A stretch of 64,000 nt of DNA from Candidatus Fermentibacter danicus (GTDB taxonomy: Bacteria; Fermentibacterota; Fermentibacteria; Fermentibacterales; Fermentibacteraceae). The notes under the pieces were generated by a model. The model was not told the origin of the DNA. It searched no databases and worked only from the letters and a program-made list of their open reading frames with translations. Made by a program: the position numbers and the translations under genes. Location of the stretch: positions 2,210 to 66,209 of the forward strand of contig LKHB01000181.1 in assembly GCA_001618615.1 (NCBI GenBank), in the 5' to 3' direction. Every line of letters starts with the position of its first letter. Positions within the stretch are counted from its first letter, which is position 1. Of the stretch, positions 24,188 to 42,494 are shown piece after piece.

Positions 24188-25284
24188 TGCTCCTTTTCGT
24201 CTCTGCGGGCGAGCCATCGGGCGATCTCAGGGCGGCCGAGCTCTGCAGGGAGCTGTCCGCCAGGTCTCCCGGCATCGGTTTCTTCGGGCTGGGCGGGGAT
24301 GACATGGAAGCCTCGGGTGTGGACCTCTCGGCTCATCTCGAGGAATTCTCGGTGATGGGATTCTCCTCCGTGCTGAAATCGCTAGGCAGGATACTCTCAC
24401 TCGAGAAGCGGCTCAGGAGGGAGTGCCTCGAACGCAGGCCGGATGCGGTGCTGCTCGTGGACTATCCCGGCTTCAATCTCAGAATGGCGCGCTGGGCGTC
24501 CCGCAGGGGATTCCCCGTAGTCTACCACATCTCCCCCCAGTTCTGGGCCTGGGGCGGCTGGCGGGCGCGAGGCATGGCCAGGCATGTCGATCTCGTCACG
24601 ACGCTGTTCGAGTTCGAGGCCGGCTTCCATGCCGCTCTGGAGGTCGATGCCGTCTGGTGCGGACACCCTCTGGTCGAGTCGATCCCCCGTCCCTCGCCCG
24701 GCGGCGGGGATATCGCACTCCTGCCGGGCAGCCGGCCGGACGAGGTCGAGAGGCTCATGGAGCCGATGCTGGGGTGCGTGGAACTCCTCAGGCGCGCCGG
24801 AGACCGGCGGGAGGCTGTGGTGGCGGTTTCGAGAACCGTACCCGGGGCGCTCTACTCGAAGGCCTCCGCCCTGGGCTGCAGGCTCGTGGAGGGCACGTCG
24901 GCGGCGCTTTCGAGCGCCAGGGCGGCTCTGGTCTGCTCGGGCACGGCCACGCTCGAAGCCTCCCTGCACGGAGTACCGTTCGTGCTGATGTACAGGACAT
25001 CCCCATTGAACTACGGTATAGCCAGGCTGCTCGTTCGCGGCGTGGACAGGATCTGTCTCGCCAGCATCGCATCCGGCAGGACCGTCGCCCCGGAGCTCAT
25101 CCAGGGTGATGCCACCGCGGAAAAGGCGTTCGATGCGGTGCTTCCGCTTCTGGGCGACACACGCGAGCGGCGGGATGCATTGGAGGCCGCAGGCGCCGTA
25201 CGCGATGCGCTGGGGCCTCCCGGAGCGGCCGGGAGGGCGGCGGAAGCCATCCTCAGGAAGCTGCAGGAGATGAACGTTGTCTGA
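24187..25284 (+). CDS. lpxB: Lipid-A-disaccharide synthase
   Basis: The C-terminal part of track ORF 22771..25284 starting at MLLFVSAGEPSGD (the LpxB N-terminal signature). GT-B fold with PGSR and related motifs. The upstream part of that track ORF is an out-of-frame artefact. Confidence 0.85.
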   Translation: MLLFVSAGEPSGDLRAAELCRELSARSPGIGFFGLGGDDMEASGVDLSAHLEEFSVMGFSSVLKSLGRILSLEKRLRRECLERRPDAVLLVDYPGFNLRMARWASRRGFPVVYHISPQFWAWGGWRARGMARHVDLVTTLFEFEAGFHAALEVDAVWCGHPLVESIPRPSPGGGDIALLPGSRPDEVERLMEPMLGCVELLRRAGDRREAVVAVSRTVPGALYSKASALGCRLVEGTSAALSSARAALVCSGTATLEASLHGVPFVLMYRTSPLNYGIARLLVRGVDRICLASIASGRTVAPELIQGDATAEKAFDAVLPLLGDTRERRDALEAAGAVRDALGPPGAAGRAAEAILRKLQEMNVV

Positions 25285-27121
25285 CCTGGTTTCGAAGGAT
25301 CGCGGTTTCGCCGGCCTGATCCTGCTCAGGCTCCTCATGGCGAGCTGGAGGGTGGACTACAGGAGGCCTCCGGGCGGGCGGACGGGCAGGCCCAGGGGCA
25401 GGCCGGTGCTCTACTGTCTCTGGCATGCGCGGCAGCTTCCCCTGATGCTCAGCCACAGGCGCGAAGGCATCACGACCCTGATAAGCCTGCACAGGGACGG
25501 CGACTATGTAGCGAAGGTCGCCAAGCTCCTTGGCTTCTCCGTGGTACGCGGTTCGAGCACCAGAGGTGGAGCAGCGGCTCTCAAGCGCATGGCGTCCGTC
25601 CTCAGGTCCGGTACGGATTGCGCGATAACCCCCGACGGTCCACGCGGGCCCGCCTTCAAGGCGAAACCCGGGCTGGTCCTGATATCCAGGCTGGGGCGAA
25701 GGCCTGCGGTTCCCATCGCAGCCTCCGGCTGCCCCGCCCTGGTATTCGGCTCCTGGGACTCCTTCCGCCTGCCGCTTCCCTTCGCACGCATGACGATTGT
25801 CGAGGGCAGGCCCATCCCTCCATCTCCTCCCCGGATGACCCCGGAACAGGCCGCACTCCATGTCGAACGCGAGATGGCAAGGGTCACGGGGATGGCGGAT
25901 TTCCTAGCCTGCACTCAGGGCAGACTGTTCGAGAGGGTCGCAGGCGCGGCCGGCAGGATGCTGGGCTTCGCCGCACAGGCGGCGCTGATTGGAAGACCCG
26001 GGAACGAGAGGCTCGAAAGGCGCGGAATCGTCCCGTCGAGAAGCGACAGACCGGTCGTGCTGCACGGATCGTCGGCGGGGGAGGTCAACGGCATTCTCCC
26101 GCTCGCCGGGCACCTCGCCTCCCGCGGCCTTCCCGTCCATCTCACATGCTTCACCCCGGCGGGCAGGGAGGCTGTTTCGAGATCGGGCCTCCCGGGGTCG
26201 TTCCTCCCCCTCGACTCGCCCGTGTTCGTGGAGAGATTCCTGGAATCGACGGCCCCCCGGGCGCTCGTGATAGCGGAGACGGAGATATGGCCCAACCTCC
26301 TCATGGGCGCCCTTCTCAGATCGGTGCCCTGCATCGCGGTGAACGCCAGGCTCTCGGAATCCAGCCTGAGGAACTACCGGCTGCTCGCCGGCCGTCGGAT
26401 CGGCAGGCTTTTGTCGTGCTTCTGCGCGATCCAGTGCCGGACTCCTGGAGATGCTGAGAGGTTCGAGTCCCTCGGCGTCGATCCTTCCGTGATCGAAGTC
26501 ACGGGCGACACCAAGGCCCTGCGCGATCCCGGTGATCCCCCCGCCGGATGGTCGTCGAGGTTTTCGGGCTGCGGCCCGGTTATTGTCGCAGGATCGACGA
26601 GGCCCGGCGAGGAGAGGGCCGTAGCCCTCGCTTCACGGAAGGCCGGTCTCTTCCCGGTGATAGCGCCGAGGCATCTCGAGAGGCTCGGAGAAGTGGCCGA
26701 CCTGCTCCGCTCCGAGGGTTTACGCACGAAGCTCTGGTCCGAGGGCGGACCCGCCTCCGGCGGTGACTGCATCCTGTTGGACGAGAGAGGGATACTCGCC
26801 CGTCTCTACGGTTGTGCGGATGTTGCGTTCGTGGGCGGCACCATCGCCCCCTTCGGAGGGCACAACGTCATGGAGCCGCTCCTCAGAGGCGTCCCGGTCG
26901 TCGTCGGACCCAGTCACGGGAGTTTCGAGGCGCTCGTCCAGGAAGGCGTAAGGATCGGGGCGGTGCGGGTAGCCGACGAGGACGGTCTAGCGGACGCATT
27001 CCACGCAATGGCCTCGTGCGGGCTCGATCGCTCGATCATAAGAAGTCTCGGAGCCTCCGGCGGCAGAGAGGCGCTCGACAGGTTCGTCGCGGCTCTGGCC
27101 CTCGCGGGGATCGTGATCTGA
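25277..27121 (+). CDS. waaA: Fusion protein: N-terminal DUF374 (lysophospholipid acyltransferase-like) domain plus 3-deoxy-D-manno-octulosonic-acid (Kdo) transferase
   Basis: 614 aa. Residues ~1-200 (LYCLWHARQLPLML...ITPDGPRGPAFKAKPGLVLIS) resemble DUF374. Residues ~230-614 form a KdtA GT-B domain (VLHGSSAGEVNGILPL..., ...GGHNVMEPLLRGVPVVVGP). Confidence 0.8.
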   Translation: MSDLVSKDRGFAGLILLRLLMASWRVDYRRPPGGRTGRPRGRPVLYCLWHARQLPLMLSHRREGITTLISLHRDGDYVAKVAKLLGFSVVRGSSTRGGAAALKRMASVLRSGTDCAITPDGPRGPAFKAKPGLVLISRLGRRPAVPIAASGCPALVFGSWDSFRLPLPFARMTIVEGRPIPPSPPRMTPEQAALHVEREMARVTGMADFLACTQGRLFERVAGAAGRMLGFAAQAALIGRPGNERLERRGIVPSRSDRPVVLHGSSAGEVNGILPLAGHLASRGLPVHLTCFTPAGREAVSRSGLPGSFLPLDSPVFVERFLESTAPRALVIAETEIWPNLLMGALLRSVPCIAVNARLSESSLRNYRLLAGRRIGRLLSCFCAIQCRTPGDAERFESLGVDPSVIEVTGDTKALRDPGDPPAGWSSRFSGCGPVIVAGSTRPGEERAVALASRKAGLFPVIAPRHLERLGEVADLLRSEGLRTKLWSEGGPASGGDCILLDERGILARLYGCADVAFVGGTIAPFGGHNVMEPLLRGVPVVVGPSHGSFEALVQEGVRIGAVRVADEDGLADAFHAMASCGLDRSIIRSLGASGGREALDRFVAALALAGIVI

Positions 27122-33019: not shown

Positions 33020-33832
33020 TCATGCCCATGCAGCGGCCTCCAGCCTGAAGGAGGACTCCAGTCGTGAGAGTTCGCACGAGTCGAGCCCGTATTCGTCCAT
33101 CTCCACAGGCTCTTCGCCCAGCGCCCGGGAGAAGGCCCGGTGGACCGGCTCCCTCAGCGATTCCGGCGTTATCCCGGGGTCGAAGTCCGCGAGCCCGCGC
33201 ACGGTTCCCGACAGTATGGCGCGCACGGCCTCCCTGGACCCGGGGTCGGTCCCCGGGAGGAAGTCCGCGAGGCGGACCTGATCGTTTCTCACGATCATGG
33301 AGCCATGTTCGAGGAATGCTCCATGGCGGCGGGCCTGGGCGCTGCCGACGACCTTGGCACCCCCGATGGTCACCTCCATCCTGCCGTGGGAGGTGAAGCA
33401 CGGATTGGCAGGCATCCTGGGATGGAGCGAATGCCTGTCCGCCCTGGCCAGCACGGCGGGAAGACCCATCGATGCAAGCGCATCGGCGAGCGCGGAACCG
33501 GTCCAAGCGAGGGCCTCCTCTATTCCGCACTTTGCGAGGAAGTGGTCCGGACAGGCTGCAATGCAGTAGGTGAGTTCGGATTCGTGCCAGACCGCCCTGC
33601 CGCCGGTAGGCCTCCGAACCGCTCCGATCCCGCCGGCCCGGAGCCTCTCCGCGCAGATCTCCCTGGACGGGTCCTGCAGCCTGCCGATGGACACGCAGGC
33701 CGGTTCCCAAAGGTATGTGCGCAGGGCGAAGCCTGTCTCGCCCCGCTCCGCCATCGACAGGAGCAGGGAATCGACCGCCATGTTCCTCGGTCCGTCCGAT
33801 GCGCCCGATCTGAGCTGAACAGAATGTGCCAT
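33020..33832 (-). CDS. Lipoate-protein ligase / octanoyltransferase family protein (BPL_LplA_LipB catalytic domain; LplA/LipM-like)
   Basis: About 270 aa from MAHSVQLRS. LRTYLWEPACVSIGRLQD...RRPTGGRAVWHESELTYCIA fits the LplA/LipB catalytic-domain pattern. Adjacent to lipA. Confidence 0.7.
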   Translation of the reverse strand: MAHSVQLRSGASDGPRNMAVDSLLLSMAERGETGFALRTYLWEPACVSIGRLQDPSREICAERLRAGGIGAVRRPTGGRAVWHESELTYCIAACPDHFLAKCGIEEALAWTGSALADALASMGLPAVLARADRHSLHPRMPANPCFTSHGRMEVTIGGAKVVGSAQARRHGAFLEHGSMIVRNDQVRLADFLPGTDPGSREAVRAILSGTVRGLADFDPGITPESLREPVHRAFSRALGEEPVEMDEYGLDSCELSRLESSFRLEAAAWA

Positions 33833-33919
33833 GTCATACTCCAGGCCCGACCGGCAGCGTGGAACCGTTGTCATCGGGGAGGGTATCAGATAGATTGATC
33901 GCCAGAACACGGAGGTCCA

Positions 33920-34825
33920 ATGAGACGAATCCTGCCGGTGGCTCTGTTCGCCTGCCTCACGGCTCGCGCCGATGACGGAATATACCGGGACGCGGGCGCT
34001 TCGGCCTTCCAGTTCCTGAAGGTCGAAGTCTCCGCCCGCGCGGCCGCTCTGGGCGGGACGGTACTGCTGAACTCGGGCCCCCTTTCAGGGATGTCGTGCC
34101 CTTCAGGGCTGGCAGGGGTGGACGGCCTCACCCTCACGGCCTGCCATGCCGGCTATCTGGGCTCCGCCACTCAGAATGCGGCGGCCCTGACCTGGGGCGG
34201 AGGGCGATTCCGATTCTCCGCCGGCATCAGCACCATTTCCGCCGGCGGTCTCGAATATCGCGGGGACGTGCCTACCTCCGAGCCTCTCGGAACCTTCGAC
34301 TATCTCGACCTCGCCGTATCCGGAGCCGCGGCGGTGAGGCTCGGTGCGGTGGATGCCGGTCTGGGCGCCAAGATCATCCACGAGGAGATCTGGGATACGG
34401 ACGACTGGGGCATGGCTGTCGACGCATCCGCGGCCTTCCATCCGACAGGCTGGCTCGACATCGCACTGGCGGTCCAGAACGTGGGGCCTTCGGTCGATTT
34501 CGGCGAGAGGCCCGGTTACAGGATGCCCATGACCTGGAGGACGGGCGCCAGGGTCACCCCGGTCCTCCCTCTGGCCGGTCCGGTCTCGGTCTCCGCCGAG
34601 ATGTGCAAGCCCATAGACAACGAGGTCTCGGGCGGAGCGGGAGTCGAACTCAATCCGGTCGGCTGGCTCGATCTCAGAACCGGTTACAGGTTCGGTAGCG
34701 ATTCCCAGGATCTCACCGCAGGGCTCGGGCTCTCATACGGCGGGTGGGCACTCGATTACGCCTGGATTCCCGGCGCGCTCTCCCTCGGGGACGTACACCG
34801 GATCGTCCTCACAACCCGGCTCTGA
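33920..34825 (+). CDS. FadL/PorV-like outer-membrane beta-barrel protein (paralog of 8548..9627)
   Basis: 301 aa with a signal peptide (MRRILPVALFACLTARA) and no N-terminal hatch motif, unlike its paralog. It has the same C-terminal architecture (GLSYGGWALDYAWIPGALSLGDVHRIVLTTRL versus LDYAFLGHEDLDDTHRISLGIGI). Confidence 0.6.
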   Translation: MRRILPVALFACLTARADDGIYRDAGASAFQFLKVEVSARAAALGGTVLLNSGPLSGMSCPSGLAGVDGLTLTACHAGYLGSATQNAAALTWGGGRFRFSAGISTISAGGLEYRGDVPTSEPLGTFDYLDLAVSGAAAVRLGAVDAGLGAKIIHEEIWDTDDWGMAVDASAAFHPTGWLDIALAVQNVGPSVDFGERPGYRMPMTWRTGARVTPVLPLAGPVSVSAEMCKPIDNEVSGGAGVELNPVGWLDLRTGYRFGSDSQDLTAGLGLSYGGWALDYAWIPGALSLGDVHRIVLTTRL

Positions 34826-34842
34826 CCCCCGGAGACGCTTCC

Positions 34843-35568
34843 ATGATAGTATTGGTCACGAACGACGACGGCATAGACGCGCCCGGGCTGGAAGCCCTCG
34901 CCTCCGCCCTGTCGGAAGACTGGGACGCCTATGTCGTCGCTCCATCCGGTCACTGCAGCGGCACGGGGCATGCGCTGACCCTGTACCGCGACCTGTCCGT
35001 GGAGAAGCGCGGCGATCGTTCCTGGTGCGTCGGCGGGACTCCGGCGGACTGCGTCAAGCTCGCCATTGGAGAGCTCCTCGGGGTCCGTCCGGACGTGGTC
35101 GTGTCGGGGATCAATCCGGGGCCCAACATGGCCAACAACGTGCATTATTCCGGCACCATAGCGGCCGCGAGCGAAGCCGCGTTCTGGAACATTCCATCGA
35201 TAGCCGTCAGCTCCGGTTCGCAGACCCCCCGGCACCTGGGCTGCACCGGCTCCTATGTCCGAAAACTCCTGCTGGCGGGCGTCCACCGGCTCATCCCCCG
35301 GTCCTGCGTTCTCAGCCTCAACATACCCGACCTGCCTCTCCGGGAACTCGGACAGCCGGTCTGGACGAGGACCGCCCGGTTTTCGGCCGATGCGCCCTTC
35401 ATCGTGCTCGATCCCGGACGCTCCTACAGGTACGGCAGGATGCCCGATCCTACCCTGACGGATCCCTCCGGAACCGACGTGGAGGCCCTCAAGGCGGGCC
35501 TCGTGAGCGCAACGCTGCTGGGGCTCGACCGCAGCCTCCCCGGATTCGACCTCCCGCCCATCGGATAG
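34843..35568 (+). CDS. surE: 5'/3'-nucleotidase
   Basis: MIVLVTNDDGIDAPGL is the SurE N-terminal signature. The rest matches full length. Confidence 0.9.
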   Translation: MIVLVTNDDGIDAPGLEALASALSEDWDAYVVAPSGHCSGTGHALTLYRDLSVEKRGDRSWCVGGTPADCVKLAIGELLGVRPDVVVSGINPGPNMANNVHYSGTIAAASEAAFWNIPSIAVSSGSQTPRHLGCTGSYVRKLLLAGVHRLIPRSCVLSLNIPDLPLRELGQPVWTRTARFSADAPFIVLDPGRSYRYGRMPDPTLTDPSGTDVEALKAGLVSATLLGLDRSLPGFDLPPIG

Positions 35569-35570
35569 CC

Positions 35571-37355
35571 GTGGCCTCCGCTCTGGCCGCGGCGCTGCTG
35601 GTCTCGTCCGGCCCGGACGCCATCTTCCTGGATCACCGGGCCTCGGTGGACCTGATCCGCAGCCCGGATCTCCTCGCCGTGGAAGTCTCGGACGAGACGA
35701 TCATCCCCCTGAACGCCTCCGGAGTGGCCCGGTTCTCGTCCCTCTCCGTCCCGTACGACCGTTCGATGGAGACTGTCATGGTCGTGAAGGCCGAGATCCA
35801 TCCAGTCCGTCCGGGTCGCCCGGAGGCCGAGGCCCGGGTGACGGAGAGGCCCAGGCCGGGACTTGCCGCATCCGGCCGGCTGGAGAGCAATTTCAGGGAG
35901 CTGGTGATCGAGTTCACAGGGGTGGAGACGGGGGACACCCTCTTCATCACGACCCGTCGCGAGATCGAAAGGCTTCCGCTCGTCGACGCCTACAGCTACT
36001 CGTTCTTCTCCCAGTCCACGGACAGCATCGCGTCGAGCTGCTTCTCGGTCCGGTGGCCCGCCGGAGCGCCGCTGCTGATCGCAGGGCCGCCGCCTTCGAC
36101 GGATTACGAGGCCGGCGGCGTGAGACATCTGCAATGGCCCTGCGGTCCGATGCCGGCGCTGCCCCCGCTTCCTCTGGGAGTACCGGTGGAGATGGAGGCC
36201 CGGCGCGTGATCATCGCCTCGCACCCGCCGGAGGAGCTGGGGGCGCTGCTCTGTCCCGTTCTGGACCCGGGCGGCGCCGGTGGAGCCGAAGAGGCCGCCC
36301 TGTCCATGGTGATAGACTCCGTCGGGCGTGATCCGGATTCCCTCAGGGCCTGGGTGGCGAGGAGCATCTCCTTTCTCGGCGCAGGCATCGGGGCGCATCC
36401 GGGGTTCACCCCCAGGACCCCTCTGCAGACGCTCCAGGACAGGTGCGGAGTCTGCAGGGACAAGTCCGTCCTCCTCACCGCACTGCTGAGGGAGGCAGGG
36501 AGCCGGGCGTGGCTCGGGCTGACCAGGGTCTCGCATCCTCTCGACGAGCTCTGCGGGATCAGGGATTTCGACCACATGGTCGTTCTGCTCGAGAGGGACG
36601 GGGCGATCGATATCCTCGACCCTTCCACGGCCGGCCACTCCACTCCCGCAGGGTACGCCCTGCGGGGCCTCCCCGTGCTGCCCGTCGCGCCATGGTGCAG
36701 GGGGTACGAGACGGTCCCCTCCGAAGGATGCGACACCCTGTCCATCCGGATGTCGCTGGGCTTCTCGTCCGGGCTGGACAGCCTCTCGGGAGGTTTCGAG
36801 GCCGGATTCACTGGGGCGGTGGACGAACTCTGGAGGGACATGCTCTCCAGGGTGGATGTGGAAGCTTGGCCCGAAATGCTGGAAGCCCTCTTCGGAGCTT
36901 CTCCATCCAGCGCCCTCCGTATCGTGGGCGATCCCCACGATCCCCTGTCGGCCGTCTCCGTGGAGGGTACGATCACCATCCCCTCCCGCCTGATCGGGGA
37001 CGGGGACACCTCGGCTATGATCCTCCCCGGGCTGGTCGACGTGAACAGGGCGGGCTCCAGGATCGCCGCCCTTCTCCTCGCCGGAGAGGGATCGAGCGGA
37101 CGGGCCGAGGGTACGGATACGCCGATGATCGAACTTCTGGACGCCGCCATCTGCATCCCGGAGGGATTCGCTCCATCCCTGCCGGAACCGGCTTCGGCCG
37201 AGGGTCATGAGGTCTCCGTGCGGATCGAGGGAGACTCGCTGAGATGGTCTGAATCCTGCGATCTCGGAAACCACGCTGTCTCCCGGCTCAGGAGAACGGC
37301 GCTGGCCAGATGCGCCGGCTCGCCTCGCGGCATCCTCCTGACGGAGGAAAGATGA
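35571..37355 (+). CDS. Large secreted protein with a transglutaminase-like cysteine-protease core
   Basis: Track ORF 35025..37355. A GTG start directly after the surE stop gives a signal peptide (VASALAAALLVSSGP). DRCGVCRDKSVLLTALLREAG...DHMVVLLERDGAIDILD is a Cys/His/Asp transglutaminase-like core. Confidence 0.55.
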   Translation: MASALAAALLVSSGPDAIFLDHRASVDLIRSPDLLAVEVSDETIIPLNASGVARFSSLSVPYDRSMETVMVVKAEIHPVRPGRPEAEARVTERPRPGLAASGRLESNFRELVIEFTGVETGDTLFITTRREIERLPLVDAYSYSFFSQSTDSIASSCFSVRWPAGAPLLIAGPPPSTDYEAGGVRHLQWPCGPMPALPPLPLGVPVEMEARRVIIASHPPEELGALLCPVLDPGGAGGAEEAALSMVIDSVGRDPDSLRAWVARSISFLGAGIGAHPGFTPRTPLQTLQDRCGVCRDKSVLLTALLREAGSRAWLGLTRVSHPLDELCGIRDFDHMVVLLERDGAIDILDPSTAGHSTPAGYALRGLPVLPVAPWCRGYETVPSEGCDTLSIRMSLGFSSGLDSLSGGFEAGFTGAVDELWRDMLSRVDVEAWPEMLEALFGASPSSALRIVGDPHDPLSAVSVEGTITIPSRLIGDGDTSAMILPGLVDVNRAGSRIAALLLAGEGSSGRAEGTDTPMIELLDAAICIPEGFAPSLPEPASAEGHEVSVRIEGDSLRWSESCDLGNHAVSRLRRTALARCAGSPRGILLTEER

Positions 37356-38839
37356 CGGGCCTTGTCCTCGCCTCGCTGCTGCCGTCCGCAGTCGCCTCCG
37401 CGTCCTTCCTCGGCATGGAGCTGTCCATGAGGGATGAGGTTCTGGTGACGGAGCTTACGGTGGACGGCTACCCCGGGAGGCGGTATCCCGTCCCGTTCGA
37501 TCCCGCCTTCATGGACGCCGAACTCGAAGAGGCCTGGGTGGCTTCTCCGACCGGAGGCAGGATCGACGTGCCCGCCTGGGCCGTCGATACCCTCAGCGTA
37601 GTGTCCGGCATGCCCTCGGCCCTGGTCGTGGCATTCCCTGGAGCGATGGGGGAGGGCGGCTTCCTCCGCGCCACGGTCACGGACAGGAGTTCCGCCTGGA
37701 GCCGTGGCGCATGGTTCGACTTCACCGCCCCGGAGTGGCCCGACAGCGTCCGGATAGTCTTCAGGGACTCCGGCCGTGAGCCGGTCTGGTCCGGAGAGGG
37801 ATACGAATTTTCCATGGACGGCCGGGACGCCGTCTTCACCGCCGGACCATCGGCGGGGCGCCTGTCGGTCTCGTGCTTCACCGACTGGGACGACCTGTAC
37901 GAATTCCTGCGGACCTCGTTCGACGAGGCCGCGAACGCGCCCGTGCCCTCCTCCGTCAGGGGGGCCGCGATCGAAGCCGCCGCCTCCGGCGCCGACGGGA
38001 CGATGATCGCAGCCAGGCTGCGGACCATTCTGTGCAACAGCTTCAGGTTGAAGAGCGCCGGGCATCCGGCGTCCCTCCTGGAGGTCGATCCCCTCGAAAC
38101 CCTCATGAGAACGAGGTCGGCCGACAGACTGGAGATGGCCCTGGTGGCGGTCTCGATCCTCGAGGCGATGGACATGGACGCCGAACTCCTCTTCGGCGCC
38201 GCAGACAGGGCGGAGGTGCCGATCCCGTCGGACTGGGACAGGCCTCTCGTTTCCATCGCCCTGGCTGACGGGCGAGTGCTGCTCATCGATCCATCGGCAT
38301 ATCTGAACAGCGCGTTCCATGTCCCCGACAGGGAGTCGATGGACATCCTGGGGCCGGGCTGCGGCAGGCCGCTCGAACCTCCGGCCGGCGGCCCCGAGGA
38401 CTTCTGGAGGGAGACATGGACTGTCGCCCCGGACGGATCGTTCGCGCTCGAAGTACTCACCGGCGGATCGGCCGATTCCCTTCTCAGGCACAGGCTGGCG
38501 GGACTGGACGGGCCCTCCGCGTCCGCCTCGCTGGCCCTCTGGCTTCTCCAGGGCGGGGGACCGGCCGCGATCGAGAGCCTCGAGACCACCGATCTGTTCG
38601 ACCTCTCCACCCCGGCTTCCCTCTGCGCCTGCGGACGGCTTCCCGACATCGTCGCTCCGGGTTCGCAGATTCTGCTCCCCAGGCTGCCGGTGCGCCAGGA
38701 GAACGGGACACAGAGGATCTGGAACCTGCCGGCGAGGATCGCGGCCTTCTCCCGGGGTCTGTCCTTGTCGGGCGGCGGTTTCTCGCTCGAGGAGGTCGAT
38801 GGTGGACCGGCCTGTCCGGCTGCTCTCTTCGAAATGTAA
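37352..38839 (+). CDS. Paralogous large secreted protein (transglutaminase-like family, catalytic Cys apparently absent)
   Basis: Starts at MTGLVLASLLPSAVASASF (signal) and overlaps the preceding gene by 4 nt. Similar size and composition, with the homologous region around LEMALVAVSILEAMDMDAELLFGAAD...LLIDPSAY. No CxxC-type nucleophile is seen at the corresponding place. Confidence 0.45.
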   Translation: MTGLVLASLLPSAVASASFLGMELSMRDEVLVTELTVDGYPGRRYPVPFDPAFMDAELEEAWVASPTGGRIDVPAWAVDTLSVVSGMPSALVVAFPGAMGEGGFLRATVTDRSSAWSRGAWFDFTAPEWPDSVRIVFRDSGREPVWSGEGYEFSMDGRDAVFTAGPSAGRLSVSCFTDWDDLYEFLRTSFDEAANAPVPSSVRGAAIEAAASGADGTMIAARLRTILCNSFRLKSAGHPASLLEVDPLETLMRTRSADRLEMALVAVSILEAMDMDAELLFGAADRAEVPIPSDWDRPLVSIALADGRVLLIDPSAYLNSAFHVPDRESMDILGPGCGRPLEPPAGGPEDFWRETWTVAPDGSFALEVLTGGSADSLLRHRLAGLDGPSASASLALWLLQGGGPAAIESLETTDLFDLSTPASLCACGRLPDIVAPGSQILLPRLPVRQENGTQRIWNLPARIAAFSRGLSLSGGGFSLEEVDGGPACPAALFEM

Positions 38840-38974
38840 GGACTTCAGCCTGCTTCGCCCGGGATCCGTTACCCTCCGCAGCGGTTCTTCGTCATCTTCC
38901 AGCCATCGCCCGGCTGCGCGCCGGCCGGGATCGGAGGCCCGACGGAACGCCCCATGTGAGGGAAGGATGATTCT

Positions 38975-40630
38975 GTGACTGAAATGGAGAGGGAAGTGCG
39001 GGAAGAGGGACCGGCGGCGCTCGGTTCCATCCAGCAGGAAGGCGGGAAGGTCGCCCGGGCCGCCGGCATGATGGGCATCCTCACCCTAGTCAGCAGGCTT
39101 CTGGGGCTTGCGAGGGACATCGGTCAGGCGGCGGTTCTGGGGACGGGCATCGCCGCAGACGCCTTCACGCTCGCATTCGTGATCCCCAACATCCTTCGGA
39201 GGCTGTTCGGCGAATCCACCGTCAGCGCGGCTCTCGTGCCCACCCTCACCTCGACTCTCGTCGACAAGGGCAGGGCGGAGGGCTCCAGGCTGGGGTCCAG
39301 AATCGTCACCTTCACCGTCGTCTGCCTCACCGTCATCACCATAGCGGGCATCCTCGCAGCCCCTCTGCTGGTAAGACTCTTCGCCCCCGGCTTCGAGGGC
39401 GAGCCGGGCAAGACCCTTCTGGCGACCAGACTTCTCCGGTTTATGTTCCCCTACATCCTCTTCGTCGGCACAGCCGCCGTGGTGATGGGGATTCTGAACA
39501 GCGCCAGACACTTCCTCACGCCCACACTGGGGCCGATCCTCTTCAACATCTCCGCTCTCTGCGGCCTTTTCGCGCTGCCGTTGCTCTGGCGTCCGGATGA
39601 ACCCGTCTGGCCGTATTCGGCGGGCATCCTGGCGGGCGGGGCGGCACAGCTCCTGGTTCAGCTCCCGGCTCTCCGCAGGAACGGCTTCTCCATCCGCCCG
39701 GACTTCTCCTTCGGAGATCCGGCGCTCAAGACGGTTCTGCGTCTCGCCGTGCCGGCGCTTGTGGGTCTCGTAGCCGCGGAGTTCAACATCCTGGTGGACC
39801 AGATGGTGGCATCGGTCCTGGAGGAGGGCAGCGTGGCCGCCCTCTCCTACGGGAACAGGATCATGCAGTTCCCGCTGGGCATCTTCGCAGTGGCCGCAGC
39901 CACCGCGCTGCTGCCGACGCTAAGCCGCCAGGCCGCGCTGAACAGGCTCGAAGAGGCCAGGAAGACCCTGGGCTATGCCACTCTGGGGCTGGCCGCGCTG
40001 CTCCTGCCGGCGACCATATTCATCACGGCGCTGGGCCGTGAAACCATCACGGTGCTCCTGGCCAGGGGCGCCTTCGGAGCGGATTCGGTCGATCTCACCA
40101 CGGCGGCTCTGATCTATTACTCCCTCGGCCTCCTGTTCTACGGCGGAGTGAAGATCACCGCACCGGTGTTCTACGCCATGAAGGACACGCATACCCCCGC
40201 CATGATCGGCATGGCCAGCATGGGGCTGAACATCGTGCTCAACGTCCTGCTGTCCCTGCTGTTCATCCGGACGGGCTGGGAGAGGCCCCTGGCGGGAGTC
40301 GCGCTGGCGACGAGCCTTTCGTCGGCGGCCAATCTCGTGGCCTTACGGATAGCCATGAGGAGAAGGCTGGGGCGTGGAGGAGGAGCGCCCGTGCGCGCAT
40401 GGGCGGCAACCCTTCCGGCGTCCGCCGCCTGCCTCGGACTCCTCGTCCTGTTGAAGCCGCGGGTGGCGGGGATGTGTTCCGGAGGTTTCCTCCCGGGCCT
40501 GATTGCGCTCGGGGTCGCCGCCGTCTCTTCGATGGCCTGTTTCCTGATCGTCTTCGCTCTCGCTGGAGGCGCCGGGGTCGCAACGCTGAGGAGGTTCGTC
40601 TTCCGCCGTGGACGGGAAGACCTCTCTTGA
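38975..40630 (+). CDS. murJ: Lipid II flippase MurJ (MviN)
   Basis: 551 aa with ~14 TM segments. LGLARDIGQAAVLGTGIAADAFTLAFVIPNILRRLFGESTVSAALVP is the MurJ N-terminal consensus. An alternative start is MMGILT (~39068). Confidence 0.9.
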   Translation: MTEMEREVREEGPAALGSIQQEGGKVARAAGMMGILTLVSRLLGLARDIGQAAVLGTGIAADAFTLAFVIPNILRRLFGESTVSAALVPTLTSTLVDKGRAEGSRLGSRIVTFTVVCLTVITIAGILAAPLLVRLFAPGFEGEPGKTLLATRLLRFMFPYILFVGTAAVVMGILNSARHFLTPTLGPILFNISALCGLFALPLLWRPDEPVWPYSAGILAGGAAQLLVQLPALRRNGFSIRPDFSFGDPALKTVLRLAVPALVGLVAAEFNILVDQMVASVLEEGSVAALSYGNRIMQFPLGIFAVAAATALLPTLSRQAALNRLEEARKTLGYATLGLAALLLPATIFITALGRETITVLLARGAFGADSVDLTTAALIYYSLGLLFYGGVKITAPVFYAMKDTHTPAMIGMASMGLNIVLNVLLSLLFIRTGWERPLAGVALATSLSSAANLVALRIAMRRRLGRGGGAPVRAWAATLPASAACLGLLVLLKPRVAGMCSGGFLPGLIALGVAAVSSMACFLIVFALAGGAGVATLRRFVFRRGREDLS

Positions 40631-42494
40631 GGCCGCAGTAGAAGGCGCCCCGCATCTGCCAGGGGTCTACCGCTTCGTGGACGCCTCGGGCCGTATCCTC
40701 TACATCGGCAAAGCTATAGACATAAGCAGGAGGCTCCGGGGCCACCTCTCGAACCCCGGCGACGAGAGGCACAGGATCATCCTCGAGAAGTCCTGCTCGG
40801 TGGAGTGGACCGTCACCCGTTCCGAGCTGGAGGCGCTCGTCCTCGAAGCCGACCTGATAAGGATACACAAGCCGCCACTCAATGTCCGGCTCAGGCAGGA
40901 CCAGCGCTATCCCTACCTCGAACTGACGATGGACGAGGAACTGCCGCGCCTGCTGGTGACACGGAAGATCGACCCGTCCAGAGATATCCCGCGATTCGGA
41001 CCCTACCCCGACGCCCGCACCCTCAGAGCGCTGGTCGAGTTCCTTCAGGAGGCCTTTCCCCTCCGGAGGTGCCGCACTCCCCGTCCATCCGGCGCACCCG
41101 GAAGGAGCTGCCTCCTGGGCCAGATCTCCAGGTGCCCGGCCCCGTGCGTCAATGGAACCGCAGGGTACTCGGAGAATGTCTCTTCGGTGCTCAGGGTGCT
41201 GAAGGGCGACTGGGAGGGCGCCAGGCGCGGCATCTCCGACCTCATGGAGGAGTGCGCCGCCTCGATGAGGTACGAGGAGGCGGCGCGCTGGAGGAACCTG
41301 CTGACCAGACTGGATTCCCTCGGATGGCCCGCGCCGGAGGCGGTCAGGGATCGTGTGAGCAGGGACATAGCGGCAGTCAGGGAGAACTGGGGCATCATCC
41401 TGCAGATGAGGTCGGGTCGTTTCACCGGAGTGGTGAGGCTGCCCTTCGAGAGCAGGTGGAAGCTGGCCGCAGTCCCGGAGAGGCTCTCGGTCCTTATTCG
41501 AACATACTACGCGGAAACCGGCGACATCCCCCGGGAGGTCGTGGCTATGGAACCTCCCTCCGATGCCGGCGTGCTGGAGGAGTGGCTGAAGGGGAGGCGT
41601 GGAAGCGCCGTCAGCCTGATCTCGCCGGTGCGCGGCGCCATGAGGGAACTCGTCGAGGTGGCCCTGAAGGACCTGGAGCACTTCCTGGCGAGGCTGGAGT
41701 GGAAGAGGCCGGGAGGCAGGAGGGAAAGGACGGAGGCCGCCCTGGAGGGGCTTGCCGACATGCTCGGCCTGCCCGCCCCACCGCGCTGGATGGTGGCGCT
41801 GGATGCCTCGACGATCCAGGGTTCTTTCCCCGTGGCCGCCCTGGTGAGCTTCCGGGACGGGAGGCCGGACAAGGCGGGGTACAGGCGTTTCTCGATGGAC
41901 GCGGAGATAGGCAGGAACGATCCGGCGATGATAGCGGACGCGGTGAGGAGATATCTGGCCGGAGCCGGGGAGGGGGAGATCCCCTCGCTCTTCCTCATCG
42001 ACGGAGGAATCACACAGCTCCGGGCCGCGATCGGGGCGGCGGGCGACGTCGCTCTGCGAACGCTCTTCGTGGCGATCGCCGAAAAGGAGGAGACGCTGCT
42101 CTGCGGGAATGAGGAGAGAAAGATATCGAGGCCTGTCGACGAGCCTCCCATGAGGCTTCTCATCGCGATGAGGGACGAGGCTCACCGCTTTGTCCTCCAC
42201 TACCACAGGACCAGCCGTTCGAGAGGGGAGATGAGATCCGTGCTCGACGACATTCCGGGGATAGGTCCGGCCCTGCGCGGGCTTCTCCTGTCCACCTTCG
42301 GAAGCGTCGACAGGCTGCGGGCGGCGACGGAGGAGGACCTGGGCAAGATCCCGGGCATAGGAAAAACCAGGGCTGCGCTGCTCAGGAGGTATCTCGATGA
42401 CTGGGAGAGACCGGAACAGGTTCGGCTCGGTGCCGAAGGAGATGCACAGGGACGAGAGGGGCTGGGTGATCAACCCGTTCGATCATCTCGCTGA
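40608..42494 (+). CDS. uvrC: Excinuclease ABC subunit C
   Basis: 628 aa with a GIY-YIG domain (PGVYRFVDASGRILYIGKAIDISRRLRGH). The UvrBC-interacting region, RNaseH-like endonuclease domain and HhH2 C-terminus are all present. Confidence 0.9.
   Translation: MDGKTSLEAAVEGAPHLPGVYRFVDASGRILYIGKAIDISRRLRGHLSNPGDERHRIILEKSCSVEWTVTRSELEALVLEADLIRIHKPPLNVRLRQDQRYPYLELTMDEELPRLLVTRKIDPSRDIPRFGPYPDARTLRALVEFLQEAFPLRRCRTPRPSGAPGRSCLLGQISRCPAPCVNGTAGYSENVSSVLRVLKGDWEGARRGISDLMEECAASMRYEEAARWRNLLTRLDSLGWPAPEAVRDRVSRDIAAVRENWGIILQMRSGRFTGVVRLPFESRWKLAAVPERLSVLIRTYYAETGDIPREVVAMEPPSDAGVLEEWLKGRRGSAVSLISPVRGAMRELVEVALKDLEHFLARLEWKRPGGRRERTEAALEGLADMLGLPAPPRWMVALDASTIQGSFPVAALVSFRDGRPDKAGYRRFSMDAEIGRNDPAMIADAVRRYLAGAGEGEIPSLFLIDGGITQLRAAIGAAGDVALRTLFVAIAEKEETLLCGNEERKISRPVDEPPMRLLIAMRDEAHRFVLHYHRTSRSRGEMRSVLDDIPGIGPALRGLLLSTFGSVDRLRAATEEDLGKIPGIGKTRAALLRRYLDDWERPEQVRLGAEGDAQGREGLGDQPVRSSR

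Follow-up and report, generated by a model that had tools for sequence, protein, structure and literature searches.

The superfamily of transglutaminase-like cysteine proteases (PF01841), with 3isr of Cytophaga hutchinsonii, LapG and PNGase among its examples, carries out proteolysis, amide hydrolysis, transamidation and acyl transfer (PMC4866520). We analysed a 64-kb stretch of DNA (the window, in whose positions all coordinates are given) that contains two adjacent plus-strand genes, gene 1 (P1, 35571-37355) and gene 2 (P2, 37352-38839), whose products are predicted to have folds of this superfamily. The results suggest that P1 and P2 form an exported two-part unit in which P1 is the catalytic and P2 the non-catalytic subunit, a reading that we consider probable and hold with moderate confidence. 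The structure behind the Pfam families DUF3857 and DUF3858, and the only one solved for them, is PDB 3kd4 (BDI_1141 of Parabacteroides distasonis, annotated as a 'putative protease'). In this protein, Pro and Thr are found at the positions of the catalytic Cys and His, and because of these replacements 3kd4 is a dead-type member whose label is probably misleading. Inactive transglutaminase folds kept for binding or scaffolding are represented by erythrocyte protein 4.2 and the transglutaminase-homology domain of Rad4/XPC. A further system used for comparison is the attachment complex of the type IX secretion system (T9SS), which consists of PorU-PorV and PorZ-PorQ, PorU being a C25-like peptidase.

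Among these systems, 3kd4 ranked first in the structural comparisons of P1 and of P2, and also among PDB sequences for both families. It has the same three-domain layout, and its length of 506 amino acids and its Cys-less, His-less 'GTPLE' helix recall P2, with which 'tPLE' is shared. However, the identity is only 9-13%, 3kd4 comes from Bacteroidota, and the triad that 3kd4 has lost is intact in P1. P1 resembles 3isr in the G-V-C-R-D helix motif, followed by a His at +40 and an Asp at +55, and in a Foldseek fold match; unlike the examples of the PF01841 superfamily, it carries large flanking DUF3857 and DUF3858-like domains, and P2 lacks the triad altogether. The likeness to protein 4.2 and Rad4/XPC lies in the loss of catalytic residues with retention of the fold, but these proteins are eukaryotic, their architecture is unrelated, and they are neither adjacent to nor fused with a live paralog. 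In the T9SS attachment complex, as in the window, the gene for a PorV/PorQ-family barrel accompanies those for an enzyme of the cysteine type and for a partner without catalytic function. PorU, however, is C25-like whereas P1 is transglutaminase-like, no T9SS C-terminal domain was detected on P1 or P2, and the barrel falls short of the PorQ equivalog model; the comparison is an analogy only.

P1 is a protein of 594 amino acids for which export is predicted. Pfam identified a DUF3857 beta-sandwich (PF12969) at residues 40-194 (35688-36152), with 40.3 bits against a gathering cut-off of 24.6 and an E value of 4e-10, and placed a transglutaminase-like core (PF01841, 22.9 bits) at residues ~258-355 (36342-36635); precomputed PF01841 matches were also found on the P1 orthologs P0004-6 and P0009. 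No Pfam DUF3858 (PF12970) match and no NCBIfam match was obtained for P1 or P2. The profile comparison of P1 with eleven canonical DUF3857/Transglut_core/DUF3858 proteins by hhalign ran end to end over 532 columns (99.8%, E 7e-29) and reached residue 611 of P0039, in which DUF3858 occupies residues 527-639. A profile of nine P1 orthologs matched PDB 3kd4, and a broader profile of triad-bearing members matched both 3kd4 (E 9e-22) and 3isr (E 7e-5). In the latter alignment, the P1 segment RCGVC295RDKSVLL was placed on ERAGVCRDFAHL of 3isr, which contains its Cys helix GVCRDFAHL; Cys295 of P1 lies in a G-x-C motif, predicted at the start of a helix, and is the first member of an ordered Cys-His-Asp triad. 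The codons of this triad were checked (Cys295, 36453-36455; His335, 36573-36575; Asp350, 36618-36620), and the three residues are invariant in 13 P1 orthologs, down to ~35% identity, as are the motifs DFDH335MVV and LD350PS. The AlphaFold2 model of P1 also had 3kd4 as its best Foldseek match (E 4e-21) and recovered 3isr (E 6e-5). These findings identify P1 as a predicted member of the family that combines DUF3857, a transglutaminase-like core and a DUF3858-like domain. An earlier interpretation of this locus (the sequence-only reading) had proposed a Cys/His/Asp core in the first gene and a DUF3857/DUF3858-type family, and both proposals were borne out: the motifs that it quoted are the catalytic ones.

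P2 is a protein of 495 amino acids, with export likewise predicted, that shows the same three-domain fold. Its DUF3857 score was 12.3 bits (E 0.17), under the cut-off, and P2 relatives scored 15-19 bits; the P2-type proteins form a subfamily that escapes the present Pfam and NCBIfam models. BLASTP of P1 against P2 returned nothing significant, the identity being ~16% at the profile level. With shallow alignments of 9 and 8 sequences, the hhalign comparison of the two families was not significant (E 0.25), and the shallow P2 profile had no match among PDB sequences. The word-indexed protein database contained only eight members of the P2 family, and a further search of this kind with the P2 alignment added no member; as a consequence, the input alignments for AlphaFold2 were shallow and the models mediocre. 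When 1.84 billion representatives were scanned in full with the P2 profile by HMMER, the family grew by 21 members (E 1e-107 to 1e-13); the scan also reached, beyond the family, canonical proteins of ~640 amino acids (E 2e-8 to 1e-3), which according to Pfam consist of DUF3857 and Transglut_core with or without DUF3858. Only once the P2 family had been deepened by these matches did the comparison reach significance: the P1 family and the 24-sequence P2 family were aligned by hhalign over 335 collinear columns (95%, E 3e-8), while reversed and column-shuffled controls gave E values of 0.05-0.6. The alignment of P2 with the canonical members begins at residue 45. In addition, the 24-sequence profile matched 3kd4 over the Cys-helix region (E 2.4e-5), and 3kd4 was the first Foldseek match for both the P1 and the P2 model. 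Structural matches to OST subunit 1, PIG-T and the M1-aminopeptidase N-domain covered the beta-sandwich only, with TM-scores of ~0.2. Because the hhalign result exceeds its controls and the P2 profile reaches the canonical proteins and 3kd4, P1 and P2 are ancient paralogs. The tandem paralogy suggested by the sequence-only reading is therefore upheld as profile-level homology, although it leaves no trace in a pairwise BLASTP alignment. As a separate observation, a protein of 2507 amino acids (P0041) contains 10 separate stretches that match the opening 60-70 residues of this profile (E 8e-8; P2 profile), a pattern that may represent a repeat of an N-terminal beta-strand unit or a compositional effect.

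The region of P2 that corresponds to the active site (38114-38290) is vestigial, as the sequence-only reading had supposed when it reported that the second gene lacks the nucleophile. The position equivalent to the catalytic Cys is Arg259 (38126-38128), and R, P, A, S, T, D or G is found there across the 24 family members; the His-equivalent is Arg297 (38240-38242), an Arg in 23 of 24 members; and the Asp-equivalent is Asp313 (38288-38290), which is D or E throughout the family. None of the 24 members has a Cys or a His at the catalytic positions. Within the old active site, Arg255 and Glu261 are invariant, and the conservation of Trp295 and Arg297 reaches at least 90% over the 24 sequences. 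The dN/dS ratio of P2 against an 81%-identical ortholog was 0.20, compared with 0.19 for P1, 0.22 for surE and 0.15 for murJ. Since P2 is homologous to active enzymes, has lost the catalytic residues and is under purifying selection, it is a pseudoenzyme that has been maintained, and a charged pocket is conserved at its old active site; the pair of active enzyme and pseudoenzyme that had been proposed earlier agrees with these data. The opposite view, that P2 is a decaying pseudogene or a spurious open reading frame of a GC-rich genome, could appeal to the abundance of long antisense open reading frames here, which are by-products of a genome with 65-68% GC, and to the failure of Pfam and NCBIfam to recognise P2. 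It is refuted by full-length P2 orthologs down to 24% identity, by the low dN/dS value, by a GC content at third codon positions of ~0.84 in the plus-strand frames (0.84 in P2) and by the structural matches of the P2 model, and we give it virtually no chance. The plus-strand frames also have orthologs and low dN/dS values.

The stop codon of P1 and the start codon of P2 overlap in an ATGA (37352-37355), suggesting translational coupling, and a GGAGG precedes the P2 ATG at 37352. The two co-oriented genes, their 4-nt overlap and the GTG right behind the surE stop had been described exactly by the sequence-only reading, which had also called for a check on whether homologs recur as adjacent pairs. 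The pair was found in every related locus examined. In every Fermentibacteria-type locus (~15 non-redundant), P1 and P2 are adjacent with a start/stop overlap, down to 24-30% identity; gene calls also show the 4-nt overlap in L001, L002, L010, L012, L013 and L014, and in L005 the two genes overlap by 1 nt. Moreover, the same order occurs in unrelated metagenomic contexts. In L016, a triad-bearing DUF3857 protein (C/H/D) is followed at once by a dead one (S/E/D), and in L030 a dead protein (W/A/D) likewise comes right after a live one (C/H/D). Two fused forms, P0040 (1253 amino acids) and P0046 (1316 amino acids), contain two complete modules each, the N-terminal module being live and the C-terminal module dead. 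Gene fusion is classical evidence that parts act together, and the fusion of live and dead modules in these proteins thus argues that the two parts do so here. Because the live-then-dead pairing recurs (two adjacent-gene cases and one fused), P1 and P2 probably work together, and the start/stop overlap, the strict co-occurrence and the natural fusions lend indirect support to the idea that they may associate physically.

In L030 (4428-8089), the live/dead DUF3857 pair is followed by two adjacent M16 peptidase genes. For M16 proteins, too, the pairing of an active with an inactive member is classical, and these neighbours hint at a proteolytic neighbourhood.

Two other roles for P2 have to be weighed against these data. 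P2 might stand alone, having been neofunctionalised after an old tandem duplication as a ligand- or glycan-binding protein or as an enzyme with a non-thiol Arg255/Glu261/Arg297 site, so that its adjacency to P1 would be merely historical. This possibility is in line with a pocket that is more conserved than a structural role needs, with the dead-type P0050, which occurs without a partner, and with the crystallised 3kd4, itself Cys-less and His-less; but the P1/P2 start/stop overlap has been kept across deep divergence, the live-then-dead order appears again in unrelated loci, and the two modules have been fused in one chain twice. We regard it as unlikely, though not negligible. Alternatively, P2 might serve specifically to inhibit P1 or to chaperone its folding, as a decoy of the prodomain kind that holds P1 inactive until export or activation. 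A dead homolog could fill the same interfaces as P1, the two genes are translationally coupled, and members of the superfamily are commonly subject to latency control (PMC4866520). The fused forms, however, suggest that the association is permanent and not transient, and the chance that P2 serves such a function seems very slim.

For the exported two-part unit of P1 and P2, the cellular location also has to be considered. The window encodes a Kdo transferase, and lpxK is present in syntenic loci; the host is thus expected to synthesise lipopolysaccharide and to have a diderm envelope. A hydrophobic N-terminal stretch of 10-18 residues was found in P1, in P2 and in nearly all of their orthologs, with no other membrane segment. 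These conserved leaders suggest that both proteins are exported; the signal peptides of the sequence-only reading are accordingly retained as hydrophobic leaders, although the window copies have no basic n-region. Export is further supported because DUF3857 (648 amino acids) and DUF3858 (544 amino acids) proteins were detected in outer-membrane vesicles of Tannerella forsythia (PMC10682907). Xanthomonas campestris has a DUF3857 gene immediately 5' of, and co-oriented with, lolA, the gene for the outer-membrane lipoprotein chaperone (PMC6341742), which is another envelope-linked context of the family. The neighbours of the pair (the PorV-like barrel, MurJ and, in relatives, a GT-C/tetratricopeptide repeat (TPR) protein) point to the envelope as well, but only weakly, because the out-of-clade pairs do not have these neighbours. 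The role that the sequence-only reading put forward, in crosslinking of the envelope or of peptidoglycan to protein, is a possible one.

According to the explanation that we favour, P1 and P2 would be an ancient, translationally coupled pair with one domain plan: the DUF3857 beta-sandwich is followed by the transglutaminase-like core, of the papain clan, and a domain resembling DUF3858 forms the C-terminal part. Catalysis would fall to P1, as a protease, amidase or transpeptidase of the thiol hydrolase or acyl-transferase type, and its substrate, a protein or a molecule that bears peptides, would be located in the periplasm or the outer membrane of a diderm organism that is probably one of the Ca. 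Fermentibacteria; sequence alone cannot choose among the reactions of the superfamily. P2 lost the nucleophile and general base long ago while keeping the fold and the charged pocket (Arg255, Glu261, Trp295, Arg297, Asp/Glu313), and may serve as a non-catalytic partner for substrate binding, scaffolding or regulation that is made in fixed proportion to P1.

Several observations speak against this explanation. First, the Transglut_core score of P1 falls 0.1 bit short of the gathering cut-off of 23.0, and the leaders of P1 and P2 in the window are short and have no basic n-region. Second, the AlphaFold2 models are mediocre, with predicted local distance difference test (pLDDT) scores of 67 for P1 and 62 for P2; the core of the P2 model (residues 178-348) is below 50, and the geometry of the pocket is not fixed by the model. 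Third, the pairing is not universal, since no partner lies upstream of the dead-type relative P0050 on its contig (L031). Fourth, synteny with surE, murJ and the barrel within one phylum may partly be due to shared ancestry and not to function, and the out-of-clade pairs (L016, L030) have none of these neighbours. Finally, searches of the literature for DUF3857/DUF3858 and for the 3kd4 and Pfam identifiers returned incidental mentions only and no functional study.

The genes around the pair were also compared among related genomes. Upstream, on the same strand, lie a gene for an outer-membrane beta-barrel of 301 amino acids (33920-34825) and surE, which encodes a 5'/3'-nucleotidase (34843-35568, with ATG at 34843 and TAG at 35566-35568; Pfam SurE, E 3e-53). 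The barrel, described as FadL/PorV-like by the sequence-only reading, is a PorV/PorQ-family protein by NCBIfam NF033709 (94.6 bits, cut-off 90); it had no Pfam match and no PDB sequence match. Its gene stands directly 5' of surE, and the order barrel-surE-P1-P2 was found in all related loci with enough flank, and murJ and uvrC come next in the closer relatives. All loci outside the window's own subclade have a third, coupled gene (P3) after P2, for example at L001:11161-12636, L002:11188-12639 and L013:4532-6154. It encodes a protein of ~480-545 amino acids with a polytopic membrane domain and C-terminal TPRs, and a conserved YVDE motif; it matches GT87/GT-C weakly and, in addition, a model named 'cell surface glycopolymer formation protein'. 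P3 was considered as a third paralog and rejected, since hhalign gave E values of 0.3-0.5 against both the P1 and the P2 family and the product is a membrane and TPR protein. The P3 gene of these distant relatives is absent from the window, from the near-identical L019 and from L005/6, L008 and L028, and neither a relocated P3 nor any further paralog was found elsewhere in the window. It has been lost in the subclade of the window, leaving the 135-nt spacer between P2 and murJ (38840-38974, plus strand); P3 is thus not required for P1-P2.

Such neighbours raise the possibility of an outer-membrane machine analogous to T9SS attachment, in which the barrel would anchor P1, as a cysteine peptidase or transpeptidase (the PorU analog), and P2, as a partner without catalytic activity (the PorZ analog), and surface proteins would be processed, or else linked to a glycopolymer whose production involves the GT-C-like/TPR protein together with the MurJ-type flippase. 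The score of the barrel over the PorV/PorQ family cut-off and its constant place before surE-P1-P2 are compatible with this idea, as are the GT87/GT-C and glycopolymer matches and the TPRs of P3 and a C25 peptidase with a faint Por_Secre_tail match that lies nearby in a related genome. However, no T9SS C-terminal sorting domain (Por_Secre_tail / TIGR04183) was detected on P1 or P2 with Pfam and NCBIfam at E values up to 1, the barrel reached 55 bits against the 220 required by the PorQ equivalog model, surE sits between the barrel and P1, and the out-of-clade pairs occur without a barrel. In addition, selection still acts on P1 and P2 in this lineage, from which P3 has disappeared, and no literature tying Fermentibacteria to T9SS was found. 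We therefore judge the analogy quite improbable as an explanation of the locus.

As to gene calls and transcription, the GTG at 35571, 2 nt past the surE stop, is taken as the predicted start of P1 because its orthologs have an ATG at the aligned position; the longer listed open reading frames from 35025 and 37310 are upstream extensions of the P1 and P2 frames. The intergenic distances from the barrel gene through surE, P1 and P2 to murJ are 17, 2, -4 and 135 nt. In a scan of 33700-39300, a single sigma-70-like match (TTGTCA-17-TAGATT, 33868-33896, plus strand) was found in the divergent spacer 5' of the barrel gene, a consensus match alone for which 0.3 would be expected by chance, and no terminator-like site was found between it and 39300. 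Co-transcription of the five genes is plausible; the sequence-only reading had raised it for surE, P1, P2 and murJ. In two metagenome-assembled genome (MAG) contigs of NCBI, LQAJ01000040 (L025:4434-5370) and LQAI01000016 (L027:6077-7879), the barrel or P1 gene is split among several frames, reflecting either assembly frameshifts or real pseudogenisation. Downstream of P2, murJ (38975-40630, plus strand) encodes a lipid II flippase family protein (TIGR01695, 383.9 bits, cut-off 235.55; Pfam MurJ, E 8e-105) and overlaps uvrC (40608-42494) by 23 nt (40608-40630). About 25 N-terminal residues of the listed murJ frame precede the TIGR01695 match, and the true start may lie further downstream, around 39050-39070.

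The closest named relatives of the window are Candidatus Fermentibacteria MAGs, in which P1 is 64-65% identical and the gene order is the same; Fermentibacterota is part of the FCB group. The window is ordinary chromosomal DNA, with glgB, xseA, comEC, the Kdo transferase gene, nadB, mutL and a BamB-like gene, and dus, lipA and a lipoate ligase-like gene are placed upstream by synteny. The protein encoded at 25277-27121 (614 amino acids) is a fusion of DUF374 with the Kdo transferase domain.

A description of live/dead pairing in these families was not found in the searchable literature. The family is spread over the diverse metagenomic lineages sampled here and over Bacteroidota and Xanthomonas (3kd4; PMC10682907; PMC6341742). 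For the window alone, the result is incremental and demonstrates neither a new chemistry nor a new mechanism: P1 and P2 are additions to known, uncharacterised Pfam families, and they provide a solid comparative-genomics lead without amounting to a novel type of system. A bolder generalisation is that DUF3857 proteins are obligate live and dead two-module machines, either coupled neighbours or fused, which in Fermentibacteria would be wired to a PorV-like outer-membrane barrel and to a module for glycopolymer or lipid-linked export (GT-C/TPR protein, MurJ-type flippase) and would process surface proteins or attach them covalently. We consider this generalisation doubtful, and rather unlikely as a whole; if it is true, the two-module machine would give the FCB group a system of envelope maturation that had so far gone unrecognised. 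The results also caution that not every DUF3857/DUF3858 member should be annotated as a protease, and the co-travel of live and dead proteins, their fixed order and their occasional fusion provide a concrete basis for the design of experiments on Cys295 of P1 and the Arg/Glu pocket of P2.

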